DNA of 64,000 bases, from NCBI GenBank assembly GCA_043801935.1, contig JAZDLO010000058.1, positions 7,075-71,074 on the forward strand, written 5' to 3'. Origin of the DNA: a bacterium. GTDB lineage: Bacteria; Actinomycetota; Thermoleophilia; RBG-16-64-13. The notes below the pieces were generated by a model. It was not told the origin of the DNA, searched no databases, and worked only from the letters and a program-made list of their open reading frames with translations. This document shows positions 23,663-52,236 of this stretch, one piece after another. Numbering within the stretch: the first letter of the stretch is position 1; the number at the start of each line of letters is the position of its first letter. A program made the translations under genes and the position numbers.

Positions 23663-23738
23663 CTCGACGACCTCCTCTTAGTGTGAGTCCTGCGGTATGC
23701 GCCCAAGGATGCCGGAGCAAGACCGGCGTATTGCCGGC

Positions 23739-24575: not shown

Positions 24576-24616
24576 AGAGATCAGACCTCCCGATCTGCTA
24601 TCCGGTGATCAGCCGG

Positions 24617-27124
24617 CTACTCTGCTTCCCATTTCGCCATTTCTATCAGGCAGGAGTTGGGCGCCATGCCTGCGACATTCTTCGACACCATGCGCGAAGG
24701 AGTCAGTAGGTTTATGCAGCCGCCCCTGTCCGTACTGCCGGCCTTACCGGGCTCCAACGGATCGTATTTGGACGATCCCTCGCAGGAATGGACCACGCCG
24801 GGTCTCACTCGTTCGGTGACCTGGGCTATGCCCAAGACGGAGGCGCGATCGTTGTAGAGCTTGACGATATCCCCGTGCTTGATGCCTCTGGCTTCCGCGT
24901 CCACGGGGTGGAGGCGGACTACCTGCCAGGCGTACCCGTTCTTGATCACCCGGTGACCGGGGATCTCCGACAGCCATGGCACGTGAGTGTCGTGCTGCGT
25001 GTGGAAGGAGAACCGGGGATGAGGCGAGATCAGCTGGAGCGGATACTTGTCCGCCAGTTCCGAGGTGTGCCCTTCCCAGCTGGGGATGTAGTGCGGCAGC
25101 GGGGGCCGCTCCTCATCGTCCGGGAGATGAGCCAGCAGGCTTTGGGAAACGAACTCTATCTTGCCGCTGTAGGTCGCCAGCTCCGTGCTCTTCTCCGTGT
25201 CTCTCTTGGGATTGCTCGTGTCGGGAGTGTCGCACGGCCGTCCTTCGTAGAACCAGCGCAAAGCGGGGGTCGATTTGTAGTCTTCGACCTGTGGGACCAC
25301 GTAGTAACCCTTCTCTTTGAACTCCTCGAAGGAAACGTACTTCGGCAGGTCGGAAGCGTAGAACATCTTCTCGACCCAGCCCTCGAAGGTGTTGCCTTCG
25401 GTGAACTCCTCCTCCACTCCCAGCCTCCTGGCCAGCTCGCAGAAGATGTCGTAGTCAGGCTTCGATTCACCCACCGGCTCCACGCATTTCTGCTGATAGA
25501 CGATGACCCGGTGATTGCAACTGCCGGAAGCGTGCAGAGAGTAGCCCCCGGAACTCGCCCATTCCCCGATGTCATAGCGCTCGAGATTGGTGCAGGCCGG
25601 GAGGATGATGTCGGCAAGTTTGGTCTCGGTGCACCACCAGCAGTCCTGGTTGACCACGAACTCGAGCTTGGGGCTTTGGTACATCCTCACCCAACGGTTG
25701 GTGTCGGTCATGGTGGCCAGGAAGGCGCCGCCGTACCGGTAGAACATCTTGATCTCGGAGCAGCCGGGCAGAGGGTAGGTGTACGGTACGAACTGCTGTT
25801 CCAGAGAGTTGCCGCAGAAGCCTTCGCCGATCCAGCTGATGGGTGGGCTCAAGATGGCTTCCGGGAGAGTCAATCGATAGAGCCGCTGCTTCACGGGGTT
25901 CACGGCCGGTTTCTCGGCGATCAGGTTGAACCCTCCGGATGCGTACCCCGGGAACTCCAGGGTGGCATTGTACGGGGGGCCGTTGGCGGTGCCCCAGATA
26001 CTCACGCCGGGCTTCCCCAATCCCTGCATGGCTTGAAGCAAGACCAGCATCCTCGCGGTCTCGGTGGCATATGCTTGCCTGCAGTGGCCGCCCTCTCCCC
26101 CCTTGACTCCACCGGCCAAGGCGGTTCGTTTCGCGGCCCACTCTCGGGCCAAAGCGACTATGGTGCGCGAGGGGACGCCGGTTATCTCCGCCGCCCACCC
26201 GGGCGTCTTGGGAGCGCTGTCGTCCTCGCCGAGGACGTACTTCCGGAATTCCTCGAAGCCGACCGTGCGACCGGCTACATAGTCCTTGTCGTACGTGCCT
26301 TCGGTCAGCCAGACATAGGCGATAGCCAGGGCCGGGGCGGCGCTTGTACCGGGTCTATTGGCTATCCATTTGTCCCCTACGGCCGCGCCGGTATAGTTGT
26401 AGAAGGGGTCGATAATGATCTGCCTCTTACCCTGCTGTTTGAGCCAGAGGCGCCAGAGAGCAGACTCGTTCCCCCCGTAGATCCCATGGGTGGAATCGGG
26501 GTCGTTACCCCAGTGGATCACGAGCTCGGTGTGCCTGAGGGCATCCTCGAGCATGTCGTAGTGCTCAGGATTGCCGAGTCTCCAGTAGAAGCCCCAGGAA
26601 TGGGTCGCCCCCCAGTGCCAGCCTTCCCAACTATCGGGGTTGTCGAAGATGTCCGAGAATCCGATGACGTTGAAGAACCGCGCCCACGCTGCAGAGCGAT
26701 AGCCCAGGTTCCCCCAGTTATGGTGAGAAGAGGCCCTGGACATGATGGCTTCCGGCCCGTGTTCGGCGCGGATACGCTTCATCTCGCCGGAGACGATCTC
26801 AAGCGCTTCGTCCCAGCTGATCCTCACGTATGGGGACTTGCCTCTGTTTTGGGGGTTCCTCTCCCCCTCAGGGTCGAAATCGACCCGCTTCATGGGAAAG
26901 AGGATCCTCTCGTCGGAGTAGACCCTGGCCCTCTCGGTCAAGGCGAAGGCGGCTACACACGCTTTTCTGAGAGGGGTGTACTCCTCGCCGTCCACCTCGA
27001 GCTTCCAGGAGGCGGCGTCCGAGTCGTCGAAGACCAGGGGACGTACACGGGTGATCTTCCCGTCCTCCACGTGCACCCGGATCGGGCCACCGTTCGTACA
27101 GTTCACAAAGATCTGCTCTGGCAT
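24617..27124 (-). CDS. Molybdopterin oxidoreductase large subunit, AthL-like, clade B (copy A3)
   Basis: 835 aa. Motifs: NCTNGGPIRVHVEDGKITRVRPL, FDPEGERNPQNRG, ASSHHNWGNLGYR, NPDSWEGWHWG, EFPGYASGG, ILPACTNLERYDI. Confidence 0.9.
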   Translation of the reverse strand: MPEQIFVNCTNGGPIRVHVEDGKITRVRPLVFDDSDAASWKLEVDGEEYTPLRKACVAAFALTERARVYSDERILFPMKRVDFDPEGERNPQNRGKSPYVRISWDEALEIVSGEMKRIRAEHGPEAIMSRASSHHNWGNLGYRSAAWARFFNVIGFSDIFDNPDSWEGWHWGATHSWGFYWRLGNPEHYDMLEDALRHTELVIHWGNDPDSTHGIYGGNESALWRLWLKQQGKRQIIIDPFYNYTGAAVGDKWIANRPGTSAAPALAIAYVWLTEGTYDKDYVAGRTVGFEEFRKYVLGEDDSAPKTPGWAAEITGVPSRTIVALAREWAAKRTALAGGVKGGEGGHCRQAYATETARMLVLLQAMQGLGKPGVSIWGTANGPPYNATLEFPGYASGGFNLIAEKPAVNPVKQRLYRLTLPEAILSPPISWIGEGFCGNSLEQQFVPYTYPLPGCSEIKMFYRYGGAFLATMTDTNRWVRMYQSPKLEFVVNQDCWWCTETKLADIILPACTNLERYDIGEWASSGGYSLHASGSCNHRVIVYQQKCVEPVGESKPDYDIFCELARRLGVEEEFTEGNTFEGWVEKMFYASDLPKYVSFEEFKEKGYYVVPQVEDYKSTPALRWFYEGRPCDTPDTSNPKRDTEKSTELATYSGKIEFVSQSLLAHLPDDEERPPLPHYIPSWEGHTSELADKYPLQLISPHPRFSFHTQHDTHVPWLSEIPGHRVIKNGYAWQVVRLHPVDAEARGIKHGDIVKLYNDRASVLGIAQVTERVRPGVVHSCEGSSKYDPLEPGKAGSTDRGGCINLLTPSRMVSKNVAGMAPNSCLIEMAKWEAE

Positions 27125-27203
27125 CCAATCATCCCTTCGCCAAATGGGTAGTGGGAGGCATCCGTCAGAGGGAATACCACAGGCCGCCTGTCGGCGCTAG
27201 GCT

Positions 27204-28427
27204 CTAGGCATCAGGCGCACCGATCATGAGGGCCACGTCTGTAGTGGCAAACCCGTGGAGGAACGTATAGACGTCCCGCAGATACTTCTGGATGGGGACA
27301 TCGTCGTCCGCGGTACCCAGGCCCCCGAAGATACCCACTGCGTGGTTGGCCACACTCAGACCCATCTCGTCGACGTACGCTTTGATCAAGATGCCCATCT
27401 TGGGATCATAGTCATACCTGGTCTCCCAGGACCAGGCGGATTTCCAGAGGAGAGCCCTGGCCGCCTCGATCTGCACCTTCATCTGGGCTAGTTTGATGGC
27501 CACATGCTGGTGCTCGATTATCTTCCTGCCACCCTGGATCCGGTTCCTCGAGTAGTTGAGGGCCTCCTCGTAGCAGGCTCGGACCGTTCCCAGGTTCACG
27601 GCGGCGCCGAGGAGCCCGAAGGGCGGGGGCGCCCCGGCCCCGGTCTTGGTCCAGTCCTTCCGTGGGCCCCCTCCGCCTTCACCCTCGGATCCCCAGGCGT
27701 CGCCCTCCTCGCCCACCAGGTAGCGGGCGGGAATACGCGCGTCTTCGAACACCAATTCCGCGTTCGGGAGCAGTCTTCTTCCCAGCTTGTTGTGGAATCT
27801 GCCTATGGAGAACCCGGGTGCGTCGTCAGGCATCAGGAACAGGCTCAGGCTCGTGGATATCGGCCCTTTCTTGTCCGTTCTTGCGTAGAGAAAATACAGC
27901 TTGGCGATCCCGCCGCTGGAGATGAAGTGCTTGGTCCCGTTGATGACGTATTCATCGCCTCTTCGCTCGGCGAAAGTCTGAATCGAAGCCCCGGGCTCGT
28001 CGTAGAGGTAATGGGAGTCGGTGCCCGCATCGGGCTCTGTTCTGGCAAGCGCCATGAGATAGGTGTCGTCCTCGAGGAACTTGGGCAGGAACTCATCCCT
28101 TTGCTCGTCGCTCAGCTCCGCCACGATCCTGGGCGATTCCGTGTAGCAGCCTCGTATGATGCTGGCAAAGCCCTGGTCGGCGGCCCCGAGCTCTTCCAAT
28201 ATGATCGCCAGCGTCAGATAGTCGGCCCCTTCGCCCCCCCATTTCTCAGGGATCGCCGCCGTCCTCAGGCCCAGCTGGGAGGCTTTCTTGATCAGATCCC
28301 AGGGGATGCAGTCTTTCGGGTCGCTCTTGCGATCGAGTTCCAGCGCAGCAGGCTTCACTTCCTCCTGCGCGAACTCGCGAACCATGTCGCGCGTCATTTC
28401 CTGTTCGTCGGTCAATCTGAAGTCCAT
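27204..28427 (-). CDS. Acyl-CoA dehydrogenase
   Basis: 407 aa. N-terminus DFRLTDEQEMTRDMVREFAQEEV, a typical ACAD middle region, and a C-terminal helical domain (ARALLWKSAW..., YTFLHGFATTD). Confidence 0.85.
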   Translation of the reverse strand: MDFRLTDEQEMTRDMVREFAQEEVKPAALELDRKSDPKDCIPWDLIKKASQLGLRTAAIPEKWGGEGADYLTLAIILEELGAADQGFASIIRGCYTESPRIVAELSDEQRDEFLPKFLEDDTYLMALARTEPDAGTDSHYLYDEPGASIQTFAERRGDEYVINGTKHFISSGGIAKLYFLYARTDKKGPISTSLSLFLMPDDAPGFSIGRFHNKLGRRLLPNAELVFEDARIPARYLVGEEGDAWGSEGEGGGGPRKDWTKTGAGAPPPFGLLGAAVNLGTVRACYEEALNYSRNRIQGGRKIIEHQHVAIKLAQMKVQIEAARALLWKSAWSWETRYDYDPKMGILIKAYVDEMGLSVANHAVGIFGGLGTADDDVPIQKYLRDVYTFLHGFATTDVALMIGAPDA

Positions 28428-28547: not shown

Positions 28548-28629
28548 CATGATAATGCGCGCGGAAAGTGGGGGGAGCACTTCGACGTAACTTTTCATGG
28601 CGGGGGCGAAGTATGACGGCGACGTATAG
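28548..28629 (-). promoter_or_regulatory. Conserved 82-nt operator/promoter element, copy a (faces the acyl-CoA dehydrogenase operon)
   Basis: The minus strand reads CTATACGTCGCCGTCATACTTCGCCCCCGCCATGAAAAGTTACGTCGAAGTGCTCCCCCCACTTTCCGCGCGCATTATCATG. It aligns without gaps to copies b and c and ends in a TATCAT -10-like hexamer. Confidence 0.6.
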
Positions 28630-28675
28630 ATAGACGGGATAAGCGAGGCTTGCCAGCGTCGCAGTCCCTGCTGAT

Positions 28676-29575
28676 CTATGATGGACCCGCGTCGCCGCGA
28701 TTGGAAACGCCTGCCCGGACGTGGACCATGAGTGCCCGCGCCGCCGCGGTCAGGGGGCGGTCCCGGGGGTAGACGAGGTTAAGATCTCGGGCCAACGGGC
28801 TCTCGAAGGGGATGGCGATCAGTCCCTCAAGAGTCTCGGGAGCGACCAGCATCTTGGGCATCGGCGCCACGCCCAGACCCCTTCTCACCAGAGCCTTGGT
28901 CAGCTCGGGGTAGTTCGCTCGATAGGAGAACTTGGGCTCGAAGCCAGCCCGGCGCAAGGCATCTGCCACTATGTTGCCGGCGTTCATGGTCGCCCGGGGA
29001 AGCAGTATCGACTCGCGCGCGAGCATGCTCAAAGCGACCGCCGAGTGGTTCGCAAGCCTATGTCCATGAGGGACCACCAGCAGGATCTCCTCTGTGAGCA
29101 GATACTGAGTCGCGGCTCGAGTAGACCCCCACGGCGTCATGACGGCGCAATCGAGCTCTCCGCTGATGACCGCTTCCTCGAGCTGCGCGTCGTCCTTCTC
29201 GATGAGATCGACGCTCACTTTCGGATAAGCCTCGAGAAAAGAGACGAGAATGGGAGTCAGGAGGAGGGCAAAGACGTTTCCGACGGCACCGAACCGCACC
29301 GTGCTCGGACCGGCCCCTGCCTGCTCGCGCAGAAGACTGACCGCCTCATCGGCGCGGGTGACGATCGCCTGAGCCAGGGGAAGTAGCAGCTGCCCGCTGA
29401 CGGTGCATTCGACATGTCTTCCGTATCGCTCAAACAGCTGAGTCCCAAACTCGCTCTCCAAACGGGCGATCTGACGGCTGAGCGTGGGCTGCGTGGAATG
29501 CATGGCCCGCGCGGCTCGGCTGAAGCTGCGAGCCTCCGCTACAGCCAGGAATGATTTGAGGAGATCCAGTTCCAT
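28676..29575 (-). CDS. LysR-family transcriptional regulator
   Basis: The wHTH region reads LDLLKSFLAVAEARSFSRAARAMHSTQPTLSRQIARLESEFGTQLFER. 299 aa. There is no SD, and the ATG abuts element copy b. Confidence 0.9.
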   Translation of the reverse strand: MELDLLKSFLAVAEARSFSRAARAMHSTQPTLSRQIARLESEFGTQLFERYGRHVECTVSGQLLLPLAQAIVTRADEAVSLLREQAGAGPSTVRFGAVGNVFALLLTPILVSFLEAYPKVSVDLIEKDDAQLEEAVISGELDCAVMTPWGSTRAATQYLLTEEILLVVPHGHRLANHSAVALSMLARESILLPRATMNAGNIVADALRRAGFEPKFSYRANYPELTKALVRRGLGVAPMPKMLVAPETLEGLIAIPFESPLARDLNLVYPRDRPLTAAARALMVHVRAGVSNRGDAGPS

Positions 29576-29657
29576 CTATACATCATCGTAATACTTTGCG
29601 CCGGCCATGAAAAGTTGCGTCGAAGTGCTTCCCCAGTTGCTGAGTCGGACTATGATG
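29576..29657 (+). promoter_or_regulatory. Conserved 82-nt operator/promoter element, copy b (lysR/etfB divergent region)
   Basis: CTATACATCATCGTAATACTTTGCGCCGGCCATGAAAAGTTGCGTCGAAGTGCTTCCCCAGTTGCTGAGTCGGACTATGATG. It contains the dyad ACTTT-N13-AAAGT (29593-29615) and a TATGAT hexamer (29651-29656) about 70 nt upstream of the etfB GTG. Confidence 0.6.
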
Positions 29658-29723
29658 TAGCAGCCGGCCCAGCCTAAGGGTGCGGCGCGGTCGAAGGTCG
29701 CCTTGCGAAGGAAGGGAAGACCA

Positions 29724-30500
29724 GTGAACATCGCGGTTTGTGTGAAGCAGGTGGTCGACACAGAGGCGGAGAAGAGGCTCGACCCCGGCTCTTGGCGTCT
29801 GGACCGTAGCGTGGACAACATCCTCAATCCGTACGACGAATACGCGGTGGAGGAAGCGCTGCGATTGCGTGAGTCTCAGGGTGGCGAGGTCATAGTGCTG
29901 TGTATGGGCCCCGAGACGGCAGCGGACGCCGTGCGCAAGGCGCTGGCCATGGGGGCAGACCGTGCGCTGATGGTCAGCGATCCCGTTCTGGCCGGTTCCG
30001 ACTCGCAAGGGACGGCATACGTCCTTGCGGAAGCACTGAAAAGTCTCGAACACGACCTCGTGCTCTTCGGGATCCGGTCCACTGATGCGGAGACCGGCTG
30101 CGTGCCGGCTGCCGTGGCCGAGCGACTCGGTCTGCCTTTGCTCTCTTCCCTCTCGAAAGTCGAAGTACAGGGCTCCGCCCTTGTGGTCCACCGGGAGACA
30201 GAGCAGGGCTATGTCGCCTACGAATGCCCCCTGCCGGCCGTTCTCTCCGTCGTCAAGGGCATCAACGAGCCCCGATACCCATCGATGAAGGGCATCATGG
30301 GTGCAAAGAAGAAGCCGCTGGAGTCAAGAGACGCGGCCGCCCTGGATCTCGACGCGAGCCAGATCGGCGTTTCCGGCGCCAAGACCCGCGTGCTGTCCGC
30401 TCGTTTTCCCGAGCCCCGCAAAGCGGGGGTCAAGATCGAAGACGACGGTGAGGGTGCTCAGCGGATCGCCGATTTCTTGGCGGCCGAAAAGCTCGTCTAG
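29724..30500 (+). CDS. etfB: Electron transfer flavoprotein, beta subunit
   Basis: GTG 29724 follows GGAAGGGAAG. Motifs: NIAVCVKQVVDTE...RLD, LNPYDEYAVEEALRL, PRYPSMKGIMGAKKKP. Confidence 0.9.
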   Translation: MNIAVCVKQVVDTEAEKRLDPGSWRLDRSVDNILNPYDEYAVEEALRLRESQGGEVIVLCMGPETAADAVRKALAMGADRALMVSDPVLAGSDSQGTAYVLAEALKSLEHDLVLFGIRSTDAETGCVPAAVAERLGLPLLSSLSKVEVQGSALVVHRETEQGYVAYECPLPAVLSVVKGINEPRYPSMKGIMGAKKKPLESRDAAALDLDASQIGVSGAKTRVLSARFPEPRKAGVKIEDDGEGAQRIADFLAAEKLV

Positions 30501-30570
30501 CGGCGCCTCAGCGCTGGTGGTATCTGCTTTCGTGGCCGACTGAAGACCGAAGGGTAGGGGAGATAGATCA

Positions 30571-31560
30571 GTGAATGACAAGAGTGGCATCCTTGTTGTA
30601 GCCGAGTCCAAGGATGGGAAACTTGCCAACGTCTCCTTGGAGAGCATCACGCGGGCTCGCGCGCTTGCCGCCGCGATCGGCGGACCCGTGAGTGTGGTCG
30701 CAATGGCCGCGGAGGCCGGGCCTTTGGCGGCGCAGGCCGCCCGCTACGGCGCCGAACGAGTCTACGTGGTCGAGAGCTCCGACCTCGCCGTGTTTCGACC
30801 GGGTCCGTTCGTCGACGCGGCGTCGGCCGGGATCGAGGCTGCCGGCCCGGCGTTGGTCGTCTTCGCGGGCTCGCCCGACGGCCGAGACGTCGCGGCCGGT
30901 TGCGCCACCCGGTTTGGCGTAGGTCTCCTCGCGGACATCACAGGTCTGGAGGCCCAAGACGGCCGCCTCATCGCCACCCATCCCTGCTTCGGGGGCAGCG
31001 TGATCGTGGAGAAGGAGGCGACCACCAGCCCGGCGATGGCTACGGTGCGGCCGAACGTCTTTGCCCGTGAGGAAGCGCCTGGTGACGCGGAGGTCATACC
31101 GCTCCCGGTGGAATTCAACCCGGGCGGCCTTCTGATCAAGGTGCTCGACGTCGTCTGCGAGATGGCGGGCATCGTCAGTCTCGAGGAAGCATCGGTCATA
31201 GTCGCCGGCGGTCGTGGCCTTGGCAAGGCCGAGGGCTTCGGCATCATCCATGCGCTGGCTGAGGAGCTCGGCGCTGCCGTGGGCGCCAGCCGGGCCGCGG
31301 TGGACGCTGGTTGGAAGCCCCACCAATACCAGGTGGGTCAGACCGGAAAGACCGTCTCGCCCAAGCTCTATATCGCCTGTGGCATCTCTGGCTCGATCCA
31401 GCACCGCGCTGGGATGCAAACCGCCGACTACATCGTGGCGATCAACAAGGACGCGGACGCACCCATCTTCTCTTTTGCGGACTTCGGCGTGGTGGGGGAT
31501 CTCTTCAGCGTGGTGCCCGCTCTGACGGAGGAGATCCACCGACGTAAGACCGCGTCCTAG
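30571..31560 (+). CDS. etfA: Electron transfer flavoprotein, alpha subunit
   Basis: The FAD-binding C-terminus reads VAGGRGLG...GASRAAVDAGW...QVGQTGKTVSPKLYIACGISGSIQHRAGM. Confidence 0.9.
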   Translation: MNDKSGILVVAESKDGKLANVSLESITRARALAAAIGGPVSVVAMAAEAGPLAAQAARYGAERVYVVESSDLAVFRPGPFVDAASAGIEAAGPALVVFAGSPDGRDVAAGCATRFGVGLLADITGLEAQDGRLIATHPCFGGSVIVEKEATTSPAMATVRPNVFAREEAPGDAEVIPLPVEFNPGGLLIKVLDVVCEMAGIVSLEEASVIVAGGRGLGKAEGFGIIHALAEELGAAVGASRAAVDAGWKPHQYQVGQTGKTVSPKLYIACGISGSIQHRAGMQTADYIVAINKDADAPIFSFADFGVVGDLFSVVPALTEEIHRRKTAS

Positions 31561-31570
31561 GACCGACGCC

Positions 31571-33643
31571 GTGGAGACCCGGGAACTTCTGTGGAACATC
31601 CCCTTGTGGGCGGAAGTGGTCATGTACGCCGGGGCGGCGATCACCATCCTGCTGCTCATCGCATACGCCGTTCGCCGAGTGATGGTGTACCGGCGGGGAC
31701 GCGCGGCGTCCACCCGGCACGCCGATCACCTGCCGGGCCGAGTATGGGATCTCGTCCTCAACGGTCTTCTGCAGAGGGCGATCGTCGACAATCGCTACGC
31801 GGGGATCATGCACCTCTCGATCTTCTGGGGATTCACGGTCTTGCTGATCGGCACCATCATCCTGATCTTCGTCATCGACTTCGGCCTGCACTTCTTCACC
31901 GGCCGTTTCTATCTCGGGTTCAGTTTCATCATGGAGCTGGGAGGGCTGGCCCTTCTCCTTGGCGTGGTGCTGGCGGTTTTGCGACGGTACGTGAGAAGGC
32001 CGGCCCAGCTCGAGCGTCGCTGGTACGACCACTACCCTTTGATCACGCTGTTCGTGCTCGGGATCACCGGTTTTCTGATGGAGGGGGCCCGCATCTATGC
32101 GGCCGGGCTCCCCGACTACGAGCAGGTAGCGAGTTTCGTGGGCTACGGCCTGGCCAGGGGATATGCCGACATCGGCAGCGCCGAGGGCTTCACCACGTTC
32201 TACCGGTACATGTGGATCTTCCACATGTTGCTCACGCTGGGCTTCATCGGGCTTCTCGGCTTCACCAAGTTCCTACACGTCTTCACCGCCCCGGCCAATG
32301 TCTTTCTGCGGGACCGGCGGTCCAAGGGCGCTATGCCCTTCGTTCCCGATGTGGAGGAGACCGACGAGCTGGGCGTGGGTACCATCACGGCCTACTCCTG
32401 GCCCGACCTCAAGGATCTCGACGCCTGCACGCGCTGTGGACGGTGCGAGGAAGTCTGCCCGGCCACCGCCTCCGGCAAGCCTTTGAACCCCAAGACCATC
32501 GTCCTCAAGAGCCGCCAGATCCTGCAGCAAAGAGAGGCCGAAGCGATGCGCACCTGGCTCCGGCGGGGCTCCGGCTCGTCCCCGGACATCCCCGATCTCT
32601 TCGACGTCATCGAGGACGACGAGGTGTGGAGCTGCACCACCTGCAGAAGTTGCGTGGAGCACTGCCCGGTGGCGATCGACCAGCTGAGCAAGGTGCTCGA
32701 GCTGCGTCGCTACCTGACCAACGAAGGGCGCCTCGCCGGGAGTGCGGCCAAGGCCCTGGAGTCCATGGGCATGCGGGGGAACCCCTGGCAGCTCAAGCAG
32801 AGCGATCGCATGGCCTGGGCCGAGGGGCTGGACGTAGAGGTGCCGGTGCTGGCCGAGATCCAGGACTCCGACCGGCCGTCCGACAGCGCCGAACCGGAAC
32901 CCGTCGACTACCTCTTCTTCGTCGGCTGCGCCGGCAGCTACGACCCCCGCGCGCAGAAGGTGACGCAGGCACTCGTGCGCCTGCTTACGCGGGCCGGGGT
33001 GTCTTTCGCCGTATTGGGAGAGGAAGAGACCTGCAGCTGCGAAGCCGGTCGCCGCATGGGGGAGGAGATGCTCTTCCAGGTGGGCGCTGAGACTCTGAAG
33101 GAGACCATAGACCAGTACCGCTTCCGTGCGATCCTCACCCAGTGCCCGCACTGCTACAACACCTTCCGCAACGAGTATCCGCAGATCGGCGCCGATTGGA
33201 AAGTGGTGCATCATTCCGAGCTGCTGCAGGAGCTGGTCTCCAGTGGGCGGCTGCCGGCCACGCCCTCCTCGGGTCTGCAGGTGACCTATCAATATTCATG
33301 CTATCTGGGGCGCTACAACGATATCTATCAGGCGCCACGAGAGGTGCTGGGTGCGGCGGGGCTCTCCCTGAAAGAGCCTCGGCGCCACGGCCGTGAAGGG
33401 TTTTGCTGCGGTGGAGGCGGAGGACGGATGTGGAGCGAGATCAAGATCGGAGAGCCCATCGAGTTCCTGCGCACTCGGGAACTTCTCGAGACCGGAGCTC
33501 CCGTGATCGCCACCGCCTGTCCTTTCTGCAAGATAATGCTCGATGACGGGGTGAAACACGAGGGCTTCGAGGAGCGGCTAAGCGTCCGAGATATCGCGGA
33601 AATACTCGACGAGGCGTGCACTTACGGATACAGCGAGGAGTGA
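31571..33643 (+). CDS. Membrane-anchored FeS oxidoreductase (NarI/DsrM-like TM domain fused to HdrD/GlpC-like 2x[4Fe-4S] and CCG domains); candidate ETF:quinone oxidoreductase
   Basis: The N-terminal ~250 aa hold about 5-6 hydrophobic helices. Then CTRCGRCEEVCP and CTTCRSCVEHCP, followed by FFVGCAGSYDPR and FCCGGGGG CCG motifs. Its position right after etfBA matches the syntroph-type EtfAB-associated oxidoreductases. Confidence 0.8.
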   Translation: METRELLWNIPLWAEVVMYAGAAITILLLIAYAVRRVMVYRRGRAASTRHADHLPGRVWDLVLNGLLQRAIVDNRYAGIMHLSIFWGFTVLLIGTIILIFVIDFGLHFFTGRFYLGFSFIMELGGLALLLGVVLAVLRRYVRRPAQLERRWYDHYPLITLFVLGITGFLMEGARIYAAGLPDYEQVASFVGYGLARGYADIGSAEGFTTFYRYMWIFHMLLTLGFIGLLGFTKFLHVFTAPANVFLRDRRSKGAMPFVPDVEETDELGVGTITAYSWPDLKDLDACTRCGRCEEVCPATASGKPLNPKTIVLKSRQILQQREAEAMRTWLRRGSGSSPDIPDLFDVIEDDEVWSCTTCRSCVEHCPVAIDQLSKVLELRRYLTNEGRLAGSAAKALESMGMRGNPWQLKQSDRMAWAEGLDVEVPVLAEIQDSDRPSDSAEPEPVDYLFFVGCAGSYDPRAQKVTQALVRLLTRAGVSFAVLGEEETCSCEAGRRMGEEMLFQVGAETLKETIDQYRFRAILTQCPHCYNTFRNEYPQIGADWKVVHHSELLQELVSSGRLPATPSSGLQVTYQYSCYLGRYNDIYQAPREVLGAAGLSLKEPRRHGREGFCCGGGGGRMWSEIKIGEPIEFLRTRELLETGAPVIATACPFCKIMLDDGVKHEGFEERLSVRDIAEILDEACTYGYSEE

Positions 33644-33647
33644 ACGT

Positions 33648-35501
33648 ATGGCTCGCGGTTACATGGGAAAGATACTGTGGGCGGATCTCTCCAAGCAACA
33701 ACTCTGGGATGAGGTCCTCGACGAAGAACTGGGCCGTCGGTATCTTGGGGGTTACGGTTTGGGCGCCAAGATACTTTTCGACCGGCAGCCCGCCGGTGTC
33801 GACCCGCTGGGCCCGGAGAACATACTCGGCTTCCTTACCGGTCCCTTTACGGGAACCGGCGCGCTCGGCGGGTCAAGGTTCGCGGTCGTGGGGAAATCTC
33901 CCCTGACCGGTACGTGGGGCGATGCCAATTCGGGGGGGAATTTCGGTCCCTACTTGAGATTTGCCGGCTATGACGCGGTGTTCTTCACCGGGGTGTCTTC
34001 GAAGCCGGTGTACCTGTTGGTCGCCGATGGTGTGGCTGAGATCAGAGACGCCGCCCATTTGTGGGGGAAGGACACTCACGATACTGAAGACATACTCAGG
34101 GACGAACTCGGCAAGGATGTCGAGGTCGCTTCCATCGGCCCCTCAGGCGAGAAGCTTTCCCTTATCTCAGGGGTCATGACCGACAAAGGCAGGGCCGCTG
34201 CGCGCTCGGGACTCGGAGCTGTGATGGGCTCCAAAATGCTGAAGGCGATCGTGGCAAAGGGTAGGGCGCAGGTCCCGGTCTTCGACGCCGACAGGGTCGC
34301 CACCCTGCGGCAGACGTACGCGAGAAAGCTCGCCGGGCTGGTCGATGAGTTCAGGAACTTCGGTACCGCCTCCGTCATCGTGCCATTTGCCAAGATAGGA
34401 GATGCGCCGGTAAAGAACTGGTCCGGGGTCTGCGAGATCGACTTTCCCGGGATCGAGAAGATCGGCGTCGACCCGGTAATGGAGAGGGTGCAGAGGAAAT
34501 ACGCCTGCCACCGTTGTGTCATCGCCTGCGGCGGTCTCATGAAGGAAAGCGCCGGAGAGTACGGATACCCCTACGGCGTCCACAAGCCCGAATATGAGAC
34601 CGTCAGCATGTTCGGCACCAATTGCCTGAATGACAACCTCGAGTCGATCATCAAGGCAAACGACGTGTGTAACCGTCTCGGGGTGGACACGATATCGGCC
34701 GGCGCATGTATCGCCTTTGCCATCGAATGCTACGAAAACGGGGTCATCACCAAAGAAGACACCGACGGCATCGAAATGACCTGGGGGAACCATCGATCGA
34801 TCGTCTCCATGCTCGAGAACCTGTGCGAGAGAAAAGGATTTGGCGACGTTCTCGCTGATGGAGTCAAGATCGCCGCGGAAAGGATCGGCGGAGGCGCCGA
34901 TCAATATGCCATACATATCAACGGACAGGAGCTCCCGGCCCATAATCCCAAATTCGAGTATGGGTTCGCGTCCTGCTACAGGATGGACGCTACTCCCGCT
35001 CGGCATATGCGCTGGCACGGCGGGTTCGTGCCGCCAGGGGTTCCCGTGCCCAAGTACGAGCCCGGGGCATGGAGCGGCAGAGGCGAGGCCCAGAAGATCA
35101 ATGTCATCTTCAATCACGCCCTCGAGAGTCTTGGTGCCTGCGTATTCGTCATCGCCACCTATCCCCACGTCGATGTCCTGATCGAGTTCCTCACTGCCAT
35201 CACCGGCTGGGATACGACCCTGGACGAAGTACTGGCGACCGGCGAGAGGATCGCCAATCTGCGTCAAGCATTCAACACACGCGAGGGGCTGAATCCGCTG
35301 GACTACGTCGTCTCCGGAAGGCTGGTGGGAGAACCACCTTTGGAGGCCGGTCCGCTTGCCGGGGTGACCATCGATCAGGACGCGATAAACCGCGAGTTCC
35401 TGGAGGCCATGGATTGGGACCTCACGACGACTAAGCCCAGCAAGAAGAAACTGCGGGACCTGGGTCTGGACGACGTGGCGAAGTCACTCTGGCCATCGTG
35501 A
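33648..35501 (+). CDS. Aldehyde:ferredoxin oxidoreductase (tungstopterin AOR family)
   Basis: N-terminus GYMGKILWADLSKQQLWDEVLDEELGRRYLGGYGLGAKILFD. Further motifs: GTWGDANSGG, and the FeS region KYACHRCVIACGG. 617 aa; GAGGAG SD. Confidence 0.9.
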   Translation: MARGYMGKILWADLSKQQLWDEVLDEELGRRYLGGYGLGAKILFDRQPAGVDPLGPENILGFLTGPFTGTGALGGSRFAVVGKSPLTGTWGDANSGGNFGPYLRFAGYDAVFFTGVSSKPVYLLVADGVAEIRDAAHLWGKDTHDTEDILRDELGKDVEVASIGPSGEKLSLISGVMTDKGRAAARSGLGAVMGSKMLKAIVAKGRAQVPVFDADRVATLRQTYARKLAGLVDEFRNFGTASVIVPFAKIGDAPVKNWSGVCEIDFPGIEKIGVDPVMERVQRKYACHRCVIACGGLMKESAGEYGYPYGVHKPEYETVSMFGTNCLNDNLESIIKANDVCNRLGVDTISAGACIAFAIECYENGVITKEDTDGIEMTWGNHRSIVSMLENLCERKGFGDVLADGVKIAAERIGGGADQYAIHINGQELPAHNPKFEYGFASCYRMDATPARHMRWHGGFVPPGVPVPKYEPGAWSGRGEAQKINVIFNHALESLGACVFVIATYPHVDVLIEFLTAITGWDTTLDEVLATGERIANLRQAFNTREGLNPLDYVVSGRLVGEPPLEAGPLAGVTIDQDAINREFLEAMDWDLTTTKPSKKKLRDLGLDDVAKSLWPS

Positions 35502-35776
35502 AATACAACGTAGAGTTCTTCGGAATGACCAATGACGCAGCCGGCGTTCGTACTGTCGAGCTGGAACTGGACGATGGGGCAAGCCTCAAGGATCTTGTAG
35601 GCGCCCTTAGACGTAAAATGCCGGCTTTAGAGGGAAGCGTCATCCGTCCCGGAGAGGATAGATTGACGGCCCATTACGCCTTCAATGTGAACGGCCGTTT
35701 CTATGTCGATGATTACGACGTCGTGGTCGAAGGCGATGATCACATTCTGCTGCTGACTTTTGCCCTAGGCGGGTGA
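35498..35776 (+). CDS. MoaD/ThiS-family beta-grasp protein (C-terminal Gly-Gly)
   Basis: 92 aa ending ...LLTFALGG. GTGA overlap with the AOR stop. AOR-linked MoaD-like genes are known from other AOR operons. Confidence 0.75.
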   Translation: MKYNVEFFGMTNDAAGVRTVELELDDGASLKDLVGALRRKMPALEGSVIRPGEDRLTAHYAFNVNGRFYVDDYDVVVEGDDHILLLTFALGG

Positions 35777-35829
35777 GCGGAGGCCCGGGTGACGGGGCCG
35801 GCCCAGACGATCGGCGGCACCAGAGCCGT

Positions 35830-35911
35830 CTATACGTCATCGTAATACTTTGCCGCACCCATGAAAAGTTCTGACGAACTGCGTCCCCCGCTGCCGGCCC
35901 GGACTATCATG
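35830..35911 (+). promoter_or_regulatory. Conserved 82-nt operator/promoter element, copy c (upstream of the CMD-family gene)
   Basis: CTATACGTCATCGTAATACTTTGCCGCACCCATGAAAAGTTCTGACGAACTGCGTCCCCCGCTGCCGGCCCGGACTATCATG. By hand alignment 65 of 82 positions match copy b, with no indels. Confidence 0.6.
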
Positions 35912-36014: not shown

Positions 36015-36464
36015 ATGCCCAGACCTGAAGAAGTCGAAGTAGTCGAAGCGATGAAGGCGGCTAAGACGGCCGAGGAGATCCTCGAGTCGTGGACCAAGCA
36101 GAGGCCCGGTTACGGCAAACCGCCGGATGATCCCACGCTTGATTTCTACAAAGACAACAAGCCGGAGATGCTGTCCACTTTCGCTCACAACCAGCTCACG
36201 CAGCTGCTCGACCGCGGCATCCTGGACCCCAAGACCCGCTATCTCATCCTGATCGCGTGCTACATGATGGAGAACCATTGGGAAGGTGTGCTGCCGCAGG
36301 CCTGCAATGCCAAAGCGGCCGGGGCGACCGACGAAGAGATCATGGAAGTGGCGTTCTGCGCCTGTTACGCCGTGGGCAAGGCCAAGATGCAGGAGAGCGG
36401 CGCCTGCCTCAACAAGGTATTCGCCAGCAACACCTTCCAGAGCATCGAGAGGCTGGAGAAGTAA
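36015..36464 (+). CDS. Carboxymuconolactone decarboxylase (AhpD-like) family protein
   Basis: 149 aa, all-helical. LDPKTRYLILIACYMMENHWEGV...AGATDEEIMEV is typical of the CMD fold. AAGGAG SD. Confidence 0.6.
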   Translation: MPRPEEVEVVEAMKAAKTAEEILESWTKQRPGYGKPPDDPTLDFYKDNKPEMLSTFAHNQLTQLLDRGILDPKTRYLILIACYMMENHWEGVLPQACNAKAAGATDEEIMEVAFCACYAVGKAKMQESGACLNKVFASNTFQSIERLEK

Positions 36465-36553
36465 CTCAGGGGAATCGGCCCTCGACACGTGGGTCGATGG
36501 ACCCGCAAGGGCCCGGTTAGCGGTCGACCATGAGAGCCGATGAGGCTTTGCGG

Positions 36554-36581
36554 AAAAAGCTCCGTAACGCGGGGCTTTTTC
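36554..36581 (+). terminator. Rho-independent terminator after the CMD gene
   Basis: AAAAAGCTCCG-TAACG-CGGGGCTTTTT: a 6-bp GC stem with one G-U pair, flanked by an A-run and a T-run. Confidence 0.7.
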
Positions 36582-36765
36582 TATCCCAATATCCAGCTTT
36601 GGCACGCCAGGGATCCCCCCAGGGCCTCTCCACCAGAACGCGCCCTTCTCTGGTAGGCTTTGTTCAAGCCGTCAGGACGGTGTTCCAGGCTATTGAAGAG
36701 GGGTATGACCCACCGCTGAACATATGAGACGGGGCGACGGCCTGTTTCCAGGGAGGGATACGTTC

Positions 36766-38712
36766 ATGCAGACCAAGTTTCCCAAGTTGTTCGAGCCGGG
36801 ATGCGTAAGGACCGTCAGGCTCAAGAACCGGGTGATCAAGGCCCCTCAGCACACGGGTCTTGCCAACCCGGACGGTTCCATCACCGAAAGGATGCTCCGC
36901 TACTACAAAGAGGTGGCTTTGGGTGGAGTCGGCATGGTGATCGTCGAGTACGCCTGGGTCGATGACGATGCGAGCAGAGCATCGCCCTGTCAACTCGGCA
37001 TCGCCCGCATGGATCACATCCCCGGGCTCTCGTTGCTCGCACAGACCATCCAAGCCAACGGGGCGAAGGCGGCGATCCAGATATCGCACGCGGGCCGGCA
37101 GAGGTTCACGCTTGAAAGGCCGAAGGCCCCGTCGACCGTTCCTTGGGAGGAACTCTATGCCGCCGGTTGCCCGGCCCCAGAGGCGTTGACCTTCGATGAG
37201 ATACTGCAGATCGTCAAGTCGTTTGGACAGGCGGCGAAGAGGGCACAGATCGCGGATTTCGACATGGTCGAGATACACGCTTGTCACGGCTATCTCATCT
37301 CGAATTTCCTCTCGCCCCGGACGAACAAACGGACCGACTGGTACGGCGGCCCGCTGGAAAACCGCATGCGTTTCTTGCTGAAAGTCATCGTTGAGATCAG
37401 GGACCAAGTCGGACCTGAATACCCCGTATGTGTGAGGCTGAGCGGCACCGATTACGAGCCGGACGGTACAACGATCGAAGAGACGGCGGAGTTGTGCGGG
37501 CGGCTCGAAGCGATGGGGGTCGCCGCCATCCACATGTCGGGAGGGAACCACCACCAGACCATCCATGAAGTCAGTCCGATGGGCATGTCCCTAGCGCACA
37601 ATGTCTGGGCGGCGGAGGCGGTGAAGAAGAAGGTCAAGATACCGGTCGTCGCTTCGGGGTCCATCAACCTTCCCGAGCTGGCAGAACATATCCTGGCCGA
37701 AGGCAAAGGGGACTTCATCGGATTGGGGAGACCTCTTTGGGCCGACGCGGAATGGCCTCTCAAGGCGAGGGAAGGCAGACCGGAAGACATCAGACCTTGT
37801 ATCCGTTGTAACGACGGTTGCCTGGCGAGAGGCGACCACCAGGCTAAGACCGTCTCCTGCTCGGTCAATGTCGCGGTCTGCCGGGAAGACGAGTTCAAGA
37901 TCACCAAAGCAGAACGCTCCAGGAATGTCGCCGTGATCGGCGGAGGGCCGGCGGGCATGGAGGCGGCGAGAGTATGTGCGCTGAAAGGTCATCAGGTGAC
38001 CCTGTACGAGAAGCGGGAACTGGGAGGCGCGCTGCTCGAAGCCGCGATCCCGGATTTCAAAGCCCCCGACCTGCGGCCTCTCATCGACTACTTGAGGACA
38101 CAGATAGAGAAGCTCCAGATCAAGATCGTCGGGGAAGAAGCCACGTCGAAGGCCATCAAGAATGGCGGATACGACGCGGTGATCGTCGCTACGGGCGCCA
38201 CCCCCTTGGCCTTGGAAGACGTCCAAGGGATCGCCCACGAGAAAGTGACCAGCGCTTCGCAAGTGCTTCATGGTGAAGCAACGCTAGGGACCAAGATCGC
38301 CGTCATCGGCGGCGGGATCGTGGGGACAGAGGTCGGTCTCTTTTTGGCCGAACGGGGCAAAGAAGTCGTGTTCGTCGAGATGCTCGACACCTTCATGAAC
38401 AACATCACCTTTGACGAGCAGTTGGTCTACGAAGAACGCTTCAAGGATCTCAACGTCTCGATCCATACCGGCAAGCGCCTGGAAAGCGTGTCGGATGACG
38501 GCGTCACAGTGGTCGACCGATTCGGGGCGAAGACCACGATCACCGTTGATTCTGTGGTGCTGGCTGCCGGTTACACGCCTAATCGAGAGCTCATCGACGC
38601 TTTGAGCAATGATCCTGACCTCCAGGTGTTTGAAGCGGGCGACTGTGTCAGACCGCGAAAGATCTTCGATGCGATCCGCGACGGACATCTTGCCGCCAAG
38701 CTGCTGAATTAG
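36766..38712 (+). CDS. FadH/enoate-reductase-type flavoenzyme (OYE-like FMN domain, [4Fe-4S], FAD/NAD(P) domain), copy 1
   Basis: ATG 36766 follows GGGAGGGA. Motifs: HACHGYLISNFLSPRTNKRTDWYGG, CIRCNDGC...C, VAVIGGGPAGMEAA, IAVIGGGIVGTEV. Confidence 0.88.
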   Translation: MQTKFPKLFEPGCVRTVRLKNRVIKAPQHTGLANPDGSITERMLRYYKEVALGGVGMVIVEYAWVDDDASRASPCQLGIARMDHIPGLSLLAQTIQANGAKAAIQISHAGRQRFTLERPKAPSTVPWEELYAAGCPAPEALTFDEILQIVKSFGQAAKRAQIADFDMVEIHACHGYLISNFLSPRTNKRTDWYGGPLENRMRFLLKVIVEIRDQVGPEYPVCVRLSGTDYEPDGTTIEETAELCGRLEAMGVAAIHMSGGNHHQTIHEVSPMGMSLAHNVWAAEAVKKKVKIPVVASGSINLPELAEHILAEGKGDFIGLGRPLWADAEWPLKAREGRPEDIRPCIRCNDGCLARGDHQAKTVSCSVNVAVCREDEFKITKAERSRNVAVIGGGPAGMEAARVCALKGHQVTLYEKRELGGALLEAAIPDFKAPDLRPLIDYLRTQIEKLQIKIVGEEATSKAIKNGGYDAVIVATGATPLALEDVQGIAHEKVTSASQVLHGEATLGTKIAVIGGGIVGTEVGLFLAERGKEVVFVEMLDTFMNNITFDEQLVYEERFKDLNVSIHTGKRLESVSDDGVTVVDRFGAKTTITVDSVVLAAGYTPNRELIDALSNDPDLQVFEAGDCVRPRKIFDAIRDGHLAAKLLN

Positions 38713-38790
38713 TGTCGGGGGACGATCCACAGCTGTCTGCGAGAGCTCACTTTTCTCTGATACGCTGTGCCCGAACTCGGGCGGCGCTCG

Positions 38791-38823
38791 CGGGGCCCTT
38801 GTTGGTCACGGGGCCCTTGTTGG
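38791..38823. repeat. Tandem direct repeat CGGGGCCCTTGTTGG x2 (3-nt spacer) upstream of the second flavoenzyme gene
   Basis: 38791-38805 and 38809-38823 are identical 15-mers. AGCTCACTT also occurs on both sides of them, at about 38745 and 38843. Confidence 0.7.
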
Positions 38824-38872
38824 CCGCCGGGCGTTGTGTGGAAGCTCACTTCGACGAGCATGAGAGGCGCTG

Positions 38873-40948
38873 ATGGCACCTTCCCAGTACGAACACCTTT
38901 TTTCGCCGCTCAGCATCGGCAAGGTGCAGCTGAGGAACCGGATCGTCAAGAGCGCGGCGCAGACCTATTTCTTTGAGCTAGGCGAGCATCGCGTCGGCGG
39001 CATAGCCAAGGCTTTCTACGGAGCGGTGGCACGAGGTGGGGTGGGCCTGATCATCGTCGAGACTCCCGCCATGGAGTGGCCCCTGGCAGAGACAGGCGAC
39101 CGGCGCTTTCGGGTCGACGACGACAAATACATCAAAGAGATCGGCGAGCTTGCCGCCGAGATCCACCGGCACCGCTGCCCAGCCTTCGTCCAGTTCTACC
39201 ATCGCGGCCCGTGGGGGGGTCCCTATCACACCGTGGCCAAGAGAGTGGCCGCGTCGCCTGTGACCTTCCCTTCGATGTTCGACGTCCACGAGGAGGAGCC
39301 GCCGCACGCTTTGACCATCGCCGAGATCGAGGAGCTGGTCGAGCGGTACGCCGGCGGGGCCCTCCGGATAGCCGAGGCCGGATTCGACGGCATCGAGGTC
39401 CACGCCGGCGCCGATCATCTCTTCGATACCTTCTTGTCCCGCTTCTGGAACAGGCGAGACGACATCTACGGCCCTCAGAGCATGGAGAACCGGACTCGCT
39501 TCGTGCTCGCAGTCATCAAGGAGATCAAGAAGCGGGTGGGGCAGGATTTCCCCGTACAGGTGTTCATGAACGGCGTCGAGGCCGGCGTGGGTGAGCTGGG
39601 GCTCAGCGTGGAGGAAAACAAGACACTGGCCCGGATATACGAGGAAGCCGGAGCCGACTCCTTGCACGTGAGATCTCATTGGGTCGGCCAGCACCAGGGA
39701 TCGTATCTGAGCGATACCCTCTTCTATCCCGAGCCGCTCATTCCCCTGAGTGAGTTTCCCAAGGAGATGGACTGGAGCCACCATGGATTTCTGTGCAACG
39801 TGCCGCTGGCGGCGGCCATCAAGCGGGTGGTCTCCATCCCCGTGATGACAGTGTGCGGGTTCGACGCCGATTCGGGAGAAAAGGTCTTGCGGGAGGGCCA
39901 AGCCGATCTGATCGGCTTCAACCGGCGCATCTTCGCCGATCCTGAGTACCCCAACAAGGTCCGCGCGGGCCGGTTTGACGACATTCAGCCCTGCACCCAC
40001 TGCGGCCACTGCAGCAGCACCTACAACGAGGTGAGGAAGTGCCGCGTCAACGCCTGCTTCGGCACCGACCAATACGATGTGGCGCCGCTAGGCACGAAGA
40101 AGCGGGTCCTGGTGGTGGGCGGCGGCCCGGCCGGCATGCAGGCTGCCCGGGTAGCTGCGCTCCGGGGGCATGAGGTCACCCTGTGGGAGAAGGGCCGGTA
40201 CCTGGGCGGTTCGGTGCCCCTGGCGGCCATGGTCAAGGGGGTTCAACTGGAAGAGCTCCCCGATCTCCTTCGCTTCTTCAGAAAGCAGATGGAGAAACTG
40301 GGCGTCGATGTCAGGCTGGGCAAGGAGTTCGATGCGTCCATCATCGCCCAAGCCAAGCCTGACGTGGTGATCCTGGCTGCCGGGGGTAATCCGCTGGTAC
40401 CGGACGTCCCGGGGATCGATGGGCGAAACGTCATCAAGAGCAGCGACTTGTACGGAAGGCTGCGGTTCTATCTGGGGATCTTCGGACCCAAGAGGCTCCG
40501 GGGCCTGACCAGATTCTGGATGCCGGTGGGCCAGAAGGTGGTGATCATCGGCGGCGCTATCCACGGGTGCCAGTTGGGGGAATTCCTGGTCAAGCGGGGC
40601 AGGCAGGTGACGATCGTCGACACCGAGGGAGAGCTCGGCAAAGGAATGTACCCGGAGAGAAGGACCCGCCTCTTCTACTGGTTCGACAAGAAGGGCGTCA
40701 CCCGAATAGAGAGCGCGAAGCTCGTGGAGATCACGGAGAAAGGACTGTCTATCGTCACCAAAGAGGGAGTGGCGCGATTCCTCGAGGCGGACAGCATCAT
40801 ATGTGCCCTACCTTTCGTGCCGAACTCGGAACTGCTCGAGAGCTTGAAGGGCAAAGTGCCGGAGGTCTACCCTATTGGAGACTGCGAGGACCCCGGTCTC
40901 ATACGGGACGCCACCGCGGCCGGCTGGCGGGTGGCCAATGCGATCTAG
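38873..40948 (+). CDS. FadH/enoate-reductase-type flavoenzyme, copy 2
   Basis: Motifs: HAGADHLFDTFLSRFWNRRDDIYGP, CTHCGHC...C, VLVVGGGPAGMQAA, VVIIGGAIHGCQ. 691 aa. Confidence 0.88.
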   Translation: MAPSQYEHLFSPLSIGKVQLRNRIVKSAAQTYFFELGEHRVGGIAKAFYGAVARGGVGLIIVETPAMEWPLAETGDRRFRVDDDKYIKEIGELAAEIHRHRCPAFVQFYHRGPWGGPYHTVAKRVAASPVTFPSMFDVHEEEPPHALTIAEIEELVERYAGGALRIAEAGFDGIEVHAGADHLFDTFLSRFWNRRDDIYGPQSMENRTRFVLAVIKEIKKRVGQDFPVQVFMNGVEAGVGELGLSVEENKTLARIYEEAGADSLHVRSHWVGQHQGSYLSDTLFYPEPLIPLSEFPKEMDWSHHGFLCNVPLAAAIKRVVSIPVMTVCGFDADSGEKVLREGQADLIGFNRRIFADPEYPNKVRAGRFDDIQPCTHCGHCSSTYNEVRKCRVNACFGTDQYDVAPLGTKKRVLVVGGGPAGMQAARVAALRGHEVTLWEKGRYLGGSVPLAAMVKGVQLEELPDLLRFFRKQMEKLGVDVRLGKEFDASIIAQAKPDVVILAAGGNPLVPDVPGIDGRNVIKSSDLYGRLRFYLGIFGPKRLRGLTRFWMPVGQKVVIIGGAIHGCQLGEFLVKRGRQVTIVDTEGELGKGMYPERRTRLFYWFDKKGVTRIESAKLVEITEKGLSIVTKEGVARFLEADSIICALPFVPNSELLESLKGKVPEVYPIGDCEDPGLIRDATAAGWRVANAI

Positions 40949-52208: not shown

Positions 52209-52236
52209 CGGCGGCGAGCGGGGGGGTCAAGCAGTG

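Follow-up and report, generated by a model that had tools for sequence, protein, structure and literature searches.

The stretch of DNA analysed here, which we call the window, is 64 kb long. It carries the gene lysR, which encodes a transcriptional regulator of the LysR type (LTTR), and an 82-nt intergenic element in three copies, named a, b and c (Table 1). Copies a and b flank lysR. Copy a lies past the lysR stop codon and faces a unit that begins with the acyl-CoA dehydrogenase gene acd, and copy b occupies most of the intergenic region between lysR and the divergent gene etfB. Copy c stands behind the last gene of the etfB unit, in front of a CMD-family gene. A first-pass annotation of this DNA had reported three gap-free copies at these positions and on these strands, and had proposed a LysR regulon. 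We found the copies exactly there, and every computational test that was run favoured a candidate cis-regulatory promoter/operator tied to the adjacent LysR.

The three window copies align without gaps over 82 columns, 54 of which are invariant. Their pairwise identities are 60/82 (a-b), 62/82 (a-c) and 65/82 (b-c, exactly the count given before), where no such match is expected by chance. A core pattern allowing up to 3 mismatches was found at these three sites only, with 0 matches in 100 dinucleotide-preserving shuffles, and profile scans of the 64-kb window revealed no fourth copy. The blocks previously listed as invariant are all present, namely CTATAC, CGT, ATACTT, CCATGAAAAGTT, CGAA, TGC, CCCC and a terminal TAT(C/G)ATG. 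Also present is the dyad ACTT(T/C)-N13-AAAGT, at element positions 18-40, with its centre about 50 nt upstream of the terminal hexamer. The forms ACTT-N15-AAGT and ACTTT-N13-AAAGT denote the same dyad, which is part of larger blocks.

Close homologues of the window LysR number more than 500 in metagenomes. The 120 best homologue clusters listed are 77-96% identical, and one of them is named 'Actinobacteria bacterium RBG_16_64_13'. We scanned eight orthologous lysR loci from other metagenomes (L026-L033, LysR 77-96% identical) with an nhmmer profile of the element. A copy adjoining lysR (b-type) was present in 8/8 loci, and its junction to the lysR ATG is invariant, at 0 nt. A second (a-type) copy was located 2-56 nt past the lysR stop in 7/8 loci, upstream of acd and of the A and B genes of a molybdenum (Mo) enzyme. 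The two copies that the first-pass annotation saw flanking lysR are thus found in the same two places at orthologous loci. The gene order lysR-acd-A-B is kept in L026-L031 and L033, and lysR is divergent from etfBA-CCG in five loci (L028, L029, L030, L031 and L033). In L026 and L027, another acd (601 aa) and a 4HBT thioesterase gene are inserted between lysR and etfB, and a third copy of the element is located upstream of etfB. In L032 the copy at lysR is weak, and etfB is preceded by another one.

The consensus, built from 20 copies of about 10 genomes, reads CTATACGtc.tcGT.ATACTT.gc...c..ccATGAAAAGTT..g..GaA..g(20 variable)GGa.TAT(C/G)ATG. Its conserved blocks (CTATACG, GTnATACTT, ATGAAAAGTT, GAA and GGa.TAT(C/G)ATG) are ungapped, and the spacers are variable in sequence and fixed in length. 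The blocks take up element positions 1-52, followed by 20 variable nt and then the -10 hexamer. Specifically, AAAAGTT and the hexamer are always 34 nt apart, even in a degenerate copy at the locus L034. The sole length change is a 1-nt insertion between GTnATACTT and ATGAAAAGTT in copies of the L001 type (both loci are described below). Similarity stops abruptly after TAT(C/G)ATG, and the leaders beyond it cannot be aligned between copies or between orthologues.

Orthologous b-type copies share 82% identity over their first 41 nt and 66% over the entire element. By comparison, identity is 49% at fourfold-degenerate sites of lysR and 46% over the 40 nt downstream of the element. Since the identity of the element is far above both values, the comparison indicates that it is under strong purifying selection and is not merely young. 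Furthermore, the winged helix-turn-helix (wHTH)/recognition helix region of LysR, HSTQPTLSRQIARLE, is invariant in the eight orthologues, which matches the invariance of the DNA blocks.

The terminal TAT(C/G)AT fits the TANNNT -10 element of high-GC Actinobacteria, in which the absence of a -35 element is usual (PMC3160421). The first-pass annotation had taken the missing -35 as a sign of activator dependence, and this part of its argument does not hold: TANNNT alone is the usual form in high-GC Actinomycetota, and the missing -35 is not diagnostic there (PMC3160421). A sigma-70 consensus scan did not flag the element and found no -35; the scan is uninformative for this phylum. Leaders of 46-120 nt separate the element from the start codons of acd, etfB and the CMD gene, each of which has a clear Shine-Dalgarno (SD) sequence. 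The most likely start of etfB is the GTG at 29724, giving 258 aa as in all orthologues, and not the TTG at 29703.

Next to copy b, lysR itself had been suspected to be leaderless and autoregulated, on the ground that its ATG adjoins the element without an SD sequence. Because the Pfam domain HTH_1 begins at residue 3 of LysR, the ATG at 29575 is the true start. There is no SD sequence in the 15 nt upstream of it (ACGATGATGTATAG), nor at this position in any orthologue. On the lysR strand, the sequence reads AAGTAT-TACGAT-GnCGTATAG-ATG, in which TACGAT is a TANNNT hexamer. We found that this TANNNT is kept in 8/8 b-type copies (TACGAT in seven loci, TACAAT in one) and in 0/7 a-type copies, which read GACGGC, GACGAC, TACGAC, GCCGTC, TACGGC and TACAGC at this site. 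The difference between the two types adds support to the suspected autoregulation of a leaderless lysR.

Leaderless genes, more than 20% of actinobacterial genes, are reported to be recognisable by a TANNNT some 12 nt upstream of their start codon (PMC3160421). Like these, lysR has no SD sequence and has a TANNNT near its ATG; unlike them, its hexamer starts 15 nt upstream of the ATG and not at the modal ~12 nt. A leader of 1-4 nt is therefore as likely as a truly leaderless lysR. These observations support a near-leaderless lysR mRNA (0-4 nt leader), which would start at 29576-29579 on the minus strand, with its -10 inside the distal operator block. Negative autoregulation of LTTRs usually rests on such a layout. 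The overlap of the candidate operator with the regulator's own promoter is seen at the level of sequence only.

We consider it probable that the 82-nt element works at the DNA level, as the promoter-operator module of a single LTTR, the product of lysR. The arrangement is best read as a classical LTTR divergent promoter-operator that was copied as a cassette. LTTR genes are typically divergent from a target, with a regulatory site that extends over the promoter of the LTTR gene itself (PMC11495319). The 148-nt lysR-etfB intergenic region, which is divergent and contains copy b, places an LTTR gene next to a divergent target in the same manner. LTTR tetramers bind a distal high-affinity regulatory site, defined by a T-N11-A core with imperfect dyad symmetry, and two proximal activation sites (PMC11495319).

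In this module, RNA polymerase would start about 7 nt past the hexamer, at ~28542 (minus), ~29663 (plus) and ~35917 (plus). The fixed-spacing blocks upstream of the -10 would hold an LTTR tetramer. The distal 21 bp, CTATACGTCATCGTAATACTT (CTATACG...GTnATACTT, ~-87 to -67), which contain a T-N11-A, may be the high-affinity regulatory site. The blocks ATGAAAAGTT (~-56 to -47) and GAA(G)TG (~-41 to -36), one helical turn apart, may be the two activation sub-sites, between which a dimer would slide on inducer binding. The spacing between distal and proximal blocks tolerates 1 nt, whereas the proximal block is strictly phased at 34 nt to the -10. From this we infer two separately bound dimers, of which only the proximal one would be positioned relative to RNA polymerase. 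The length of the putative extended operator (positions 1-52) is consistent with the 50-60 bp of LTTR operators, with its positions counted from the putative start. At copy b, the distal site would overlap the TACGAT -10 of lysR, so that LysR bound there would hold down its own synthesis. The module would couple three units, which the regulator most likely switches on, to one signal, namely acd-Mo hydroxylase-ADH, etfBA-FeS oxidoreductase-AOR and CMD-OYE-OYE-Mo subunit.

The element also occurs outside lysR neighbourhoods. Two large pattern scans of genome and metagenome contigs used an N9 spacer between ATACTT and CCATGAAAAGTT and were blind to copies with the window's own N8 spacing. They returned 25 loci, four of which (L001, L011, L024 and L025) are true homologues with the 1-nt insertion; the other 21 are chance matches in AT-rich genomes, without flank similarity. 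L001 is a Gaiellales metagenome-assembled genome (MAG) and L011 an Actinomycetota MAG. All four copies represent one orthologous site, ~97 nt upstream of a gene for a pyrogallol-hydroxytransferase-like (AhtL-like) large subunit. This subunit is the orthologue of the window gene at 41022-43637, because the same gene is the last of the etf operon in L033, stands behind copy c in the window and has its own copy in the L001-type genomes. In the L033 genome it ends the long operon etfB-etfA-CCG-adh-CMD-OYE-OYE-A, and in both L033 and L035 the CMD, OYE, OYE and A genes form the tail of the etf operon. The AhtL-like orthologue therefore follows a copy of the element in each of three distinct gene arrangements. 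The leader at L001 3445-3530 (the same in L011, L024 and L025) contains the repeats tatcgatttccgtgatcgaagg, ttgatcggtgtcg and tatcgatctgactgatcggg with ATCGAT/GATCG, which are absent from the window leaders.

A further, more diverged locus, L034, has a degenerate copy at 9856-9935 upstream of the Mo-enzyme orthologue, among groES/EL and tsaBDE genes. It reads CCATAC...GATGAAAAGTT-N34-TAAGATG. Its distal blocks have decayed and ATGAAAAGTT-N34-TAAGAT is kept, from which the proximal block may be the part that matters most. Outside lysR neighbourhoods, the element was found only upstream of the orthologue of this one gene of the window cluster. The contig P0127 has both the Mo paralogue and a LysR.

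Several observations weigh against LysR as the reader of the element. There is no LysR gene within 10 kb of the L034 copy, and none was found at the four intact L001-type loci, where 0.5-3.5 kb downstream was examined; a distant or different regulator would therefore act there. The absence of the element from unrelated loci holds only for the related loci scanned (~250 kb) and for the sets of viral and plasmid sequences. The first-pass annotation had also recognised a LysR-type geometry in the dyad. The dyad stands, but it is not a canonical T-N11-A box: ACTT-N15-AAGT exceeds the width of one LTTR dimer, and L001-type copies have 1 nt more in its spacer. The sole T-N11-A between conserved columns, T4-A16 (as ATAC-N7-T(A/C)AT), has weak dyad symmetry. 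Counted from the putative start, the conserved blocks are shifted 10-15 bp upstream of the textbook -65/-35 positions. LysR binding and the start sites are putative, as are the direction of regulation and the sub-sites.

The same observations are what an alternative draws on, in which the element is a conserved promoter module read by another regulator or a nucleoid protein, or is an intrinsic upstream element, and lysR is a mere member of the regulon. In its favour, the L034 copy keeps ATGAAAAGTT-N34-TANNNT at a housekeeping locus, the intact L001-type copies stand in the same kind of neighbourhood, the blocks have no canonical T-N11-A dyad, and the window encodes a TetR-family regulator as well. 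However, lysR is flanked on both sides by the element with an invariant ATG junction (8/8 loci), its recognition helix is invariant, and none of the TetR or IclR genes near some loci is a conserved partner. We regard this alternative as unlikely.

Other explanations do not involve a DNA operator at all. The element lies 46-120 nt upstream of start codons, as a riboswitch would, and its 82-nt length and multiple copies before related genes resemble a cis-regulatory RNA. Yet RNAalifold of 17 copies gave -0.36 kcal/mol with 3 pairs and 0 compensatory changes (-0.24 for the reverse strand), and no Rfam family reached the gathering threshold in the window. The variable stretches are without covariation, conservation falls in ungapped blocks, and for copy b such a promoter could only be located within the coding sequence of lysR. 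A structured RNA (5' leader, riboswitch or small RNA) made from a promoter further upstream is thus very improbable. We give as little credence to a 17-residue leader peptide, MKS..E........(I/T)(I/M)M, read from the ATG of CCATGAAAAGTT. Its frame is open in 15/17 copies, several of which end with TAG/TAA right after TATCATG (copies a and b end ATG TAG), but a frameshift or a premature stop breaks it in 2/17 copies. Across the variable stretch, the three codon positions carry mean information of 0.99/0.74/0.75, so that third-position wobble is absent. Second positions are often changed, and there is neither an SD sequence nor a promoter upstream. The open frame would be a by-product of the fixed spacing.

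The least credible explanation is a small mobile or dispersed repeat, similar to a miniature inverted-repeat transposable element (MITE) or a repetitive extragenic palindrome (REP), that happens to be intergenic. In its favour are the several near-identical copies in one genome and a copy in L026 that clearly stems from a recent duplication. Against it, there are no terminal inverted repeats or target duplications, the copies stand at orthologous sites in 8 genomes whose synonymous divergence is saturated, and they always face an operon of the same pathway/gene set. In viral contigs, the N8 pattern gave 3 chance matches only, and blastn of copy c found none in plasmids. In the large N9 collection scans, the true loci (4/25) are all L001-type orthologues. 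The first-pass annotation had named a dispersed repeat at many unrelated loci as the finding that would speak against its proposal, and no such repeat appeared: over the ~250 kb of related loci, copies were confined to lysR, etf, acd and Mo-enzyme promoters, and neither the viral contigs and plasmids nor the N9 scans showed one.

Returning to the promoter-operator module, we compared its copies with respect to their origin. The a-type copies of different genomes are more alike than a- and b-type copies within one genome. It follows that the a/b duplication is old and that both copies have been maintained. In L026 (7371-7407) and also in L027, about 37 nt nearly identical to the first lysR codons precede the extra copy upstream of etfB. 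The near-identity marks this lysR stub as the remnant of a segmental duplication of the lysR-etfB intergenic region, at the acd/thioesterase insertion. These 37 nt of lysR 5' coding sequence on the extra copy in L026 show directly that the cassette spreads by segmental duplication. Copy c of the window is b-like: it retains ATCGTA and is close to the b-type copy of L028. Its flank shows weak similarity to lysR, at 8 of the last 15 positions, and it occupies a place at which the etf...adh-CMD operon of other genomes runs on without a break. On the basis of the L026 stub and the b-like copy c, we tentatively propose a portable cassette, by which inserted or rearranged operons would be recruited to the LysR regulon through duplication of the whole cassette, sometimes with a lysR stub, and the regulon would represent an undescribed anaerobic catabolic pathway. 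This proposal is possible but falls short of probable.

The gene identities that the first-pass annotation gave for the units facing each copy are confirmed by Pfam. It had copy c facing the CMD gene alone, whereas this unit is probably longer. Specifically, no intrinsic terminator is predicted on the plus strand within the copy-c unit, and the same genes form one operon in L033/L035; the unit therefore probably reaches through 43637. Terminators are likewise not predicted in the gaps that separate lysR from copy a and the MoaD-like gene from copy c, or on the minus strand between the genes of the copy-a unit. The AOR stop is overlapped by 4 nt by the ThiS/MoaD-like open reading frame, and at this position of the etf operon L029 and L033 have a gene for an iron-containing alcohol dehydrogenase (Fe-ADH).

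Table 1. Positions of the element copies, genes and transcription units in the 64-kb window
Feature	Position	Strand	Remarks
Copy a	28548-28629	minus	Begins 46 nt past the lysR stop; acd ~120 nt further downstream
Blocks of copy a	CTATACG 28623-28629; GTCATACTT 28609-28617; ATGAAAAGTT 28589-28598; GAA 28581-28583; TATCAT 28549-28554	minus	TATCAT is -10-like
Copy b	29576-29657	plus	Most of the divergent lysR-etfB intergenic region; first base adjoins the lysR ATG
Blocks of copy b	CTATACA 29576-29582; GTAATACTT 29588-29596; ATGAAAAGTT 29607-29616; GAA 29622-29624; TATGAT 29651-29656	plus	TATGAT is -10-like
Copy c	35830-35911	plus	Begins 53 nt past the MoaD-like stop; ends 103 nt before the CMD-family ATG
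Blocks of copy c	CTATACG 35830-35836; GTAATACTT 35842-35850; ATGAAAAGTT 35861-35870; GAA 35876-35878; TATCAT 35905-35910	plus	TATCAT is -10-like
TACGAT (TANNNT)	29585-29590	minus	9 nt upstream of the lysR ATG, within the element's conserved 5' part; candidate -10 of lysR
lysR	28676-29575	minus	LysR-type regulator, 299 aa; Pfam HTH_1 and LysR_substrate; presumed trans-acting factor
Unit behind copy a	22487-28427	minus	acd, AhtL-like Mo large subunit, 4Fe-4S small subunit, Fe-ADH (Pfam)
acd (acyl-CoA dehydrogenase)	27204-28427	minus	Pfam
Pyrogallol-hydroxytransferase-like (AhtL-like) Mo large subunit	24617-27124	minus	Pfam
4Fe-4S small subunit	23739-24575	minus	Pfam
Fe-ADH	22487-23662	minus	Pfam
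Unit behind copy b	29724-35776	plus	etfB to ThiS/MoaD-like (Pfam)
etfB	29724-30500	plus	Pfam
etfA	30571-31560	plus	Pfam
Membrane CCG/FeS oxidoreductase	31571-33643	plus	Pfam
AOR	33648-35501	plus	Pfam
ThiS/MoaD-like	35498-35776	plus	Pfam
Probable unit behind copy c	36015-43637	plus	Putative extent; Pfam
CMD-family	36015-36464	plus	Pfam
OYE/Pyr_redox flavoenzymes (two)	36724-38712; 38873-40948	plus	Pfam
AhtL-like Mo large subunit	41022-43637	plus	Last gene of the copy-c unit; Pfam
TetR-family regulator	43681-44274		Directly after the AhtL-like gene 41022-43637, before a solute-binding protein gene
Other AhtL-like paralogues	8157-11018; 13502-16015; 46366-48960; 52234-54825		
Peripla_BP_6 solute-binding paralogues	11855-13309; 44402-45886; 59070-60554; also 1-1173		Twin-arginine translocation (TAT)-type signals
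Second Fe-ADH gene	60681-61862		

The window contains further genes related to these units. At least 5-6 paralogous AhtL-like molybdopterin large subunits are present, with mutual identities of 28-59%, and several of them adjoin 4Fe-4S/CarboxypepD_reg small subunits. Only two stand behind an element copy, and the remaining ones would therefore be under different control. The TetR-family gene is a second, independent regulator within the cluster. The Peripla_BP_6 paralogues have degenerate 18-21-nt tandem repeats past the signal, encoding Thr/Gly-rich linkers (repeat families D5 and D11). The proteins of the two Fe-ADH genes are 73% identical, and their DNA is 84-86% identical over 300-nt stretches. 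This pair is much closer than other paralogue pairs of the window, which suggests a recent duplication or gene conversion.

Among known systems, the nearest solved structures to the window LysR are BenM, CatM and CysB (BenM/CatM PDB matches with E values of 1e-23 to 1e-20). The benA/catB promoters of Acinetobacter baylyi, bound by BenM/CatM at sites 1-3 (ATAC-N7-GTAT), share several features with the lysR locus. In both, the gene for the LTTR and a catabolic operon are divergent. A long operator with multiple sub-sites in front of the promoter, and a regulatory site that reaches over the regulator promoter (PMC11495319), are likewise common to both, though putative at lysR; ATAC also occurs twice in the distal block of our element. 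In contrast to the ATAC-N7-GTAT palindrome, however, the two ATAC are direct repeats 13 bp apart. The window LysR is only distantly related and reaches no equivalog cut-off in NCBIfam. It comes from an uncultured actinobacterium of high GC content, its promoter consists of a -10 alone, and the whole 82-bp module is present three times.

VirR of Rhodococcus equi is an autoregulated actinobacterial LTTR, with an extra promoter just past its own gene (PMC11495319), which resembles copy a, 46 nt past the lysR stop. VirR differs in being the first gene of its own operon and in having virulence targets, whereas lysR has a divergent target at copy b as well, and its targets are anaerobic catabolic and electron-transfer genes. 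We found no relevant literature on this motif or gene set. The comparisons make a well-supported case, on sequence grounds, that the element is a new instance, not described before, of a very familiar type: the divergent promoter-operator of an LTTR, here copied as a cassette.

The element provides a precise candidate operator/promoter for a LysR that is highly conserved in environmental metagenomes. The mechanism would be the standard LTTR arrangement and no surprise to a specialist. The element would join into one co-regulated set acd, a pyrogallol-hydroxytransferase-like Mo enzyme, ETF with a membrane oxidoreductase, AOR and OYE reductases, and would serve as a clean example of regulon growth by promoter-cassette duplication. 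It would also give a handle on an uncharacterised anaerobic pathway in uncultured Actinomycetota. If the portable-cassette proposal is true, the inducer of this pathway could be found by using the promoter as a reporter.

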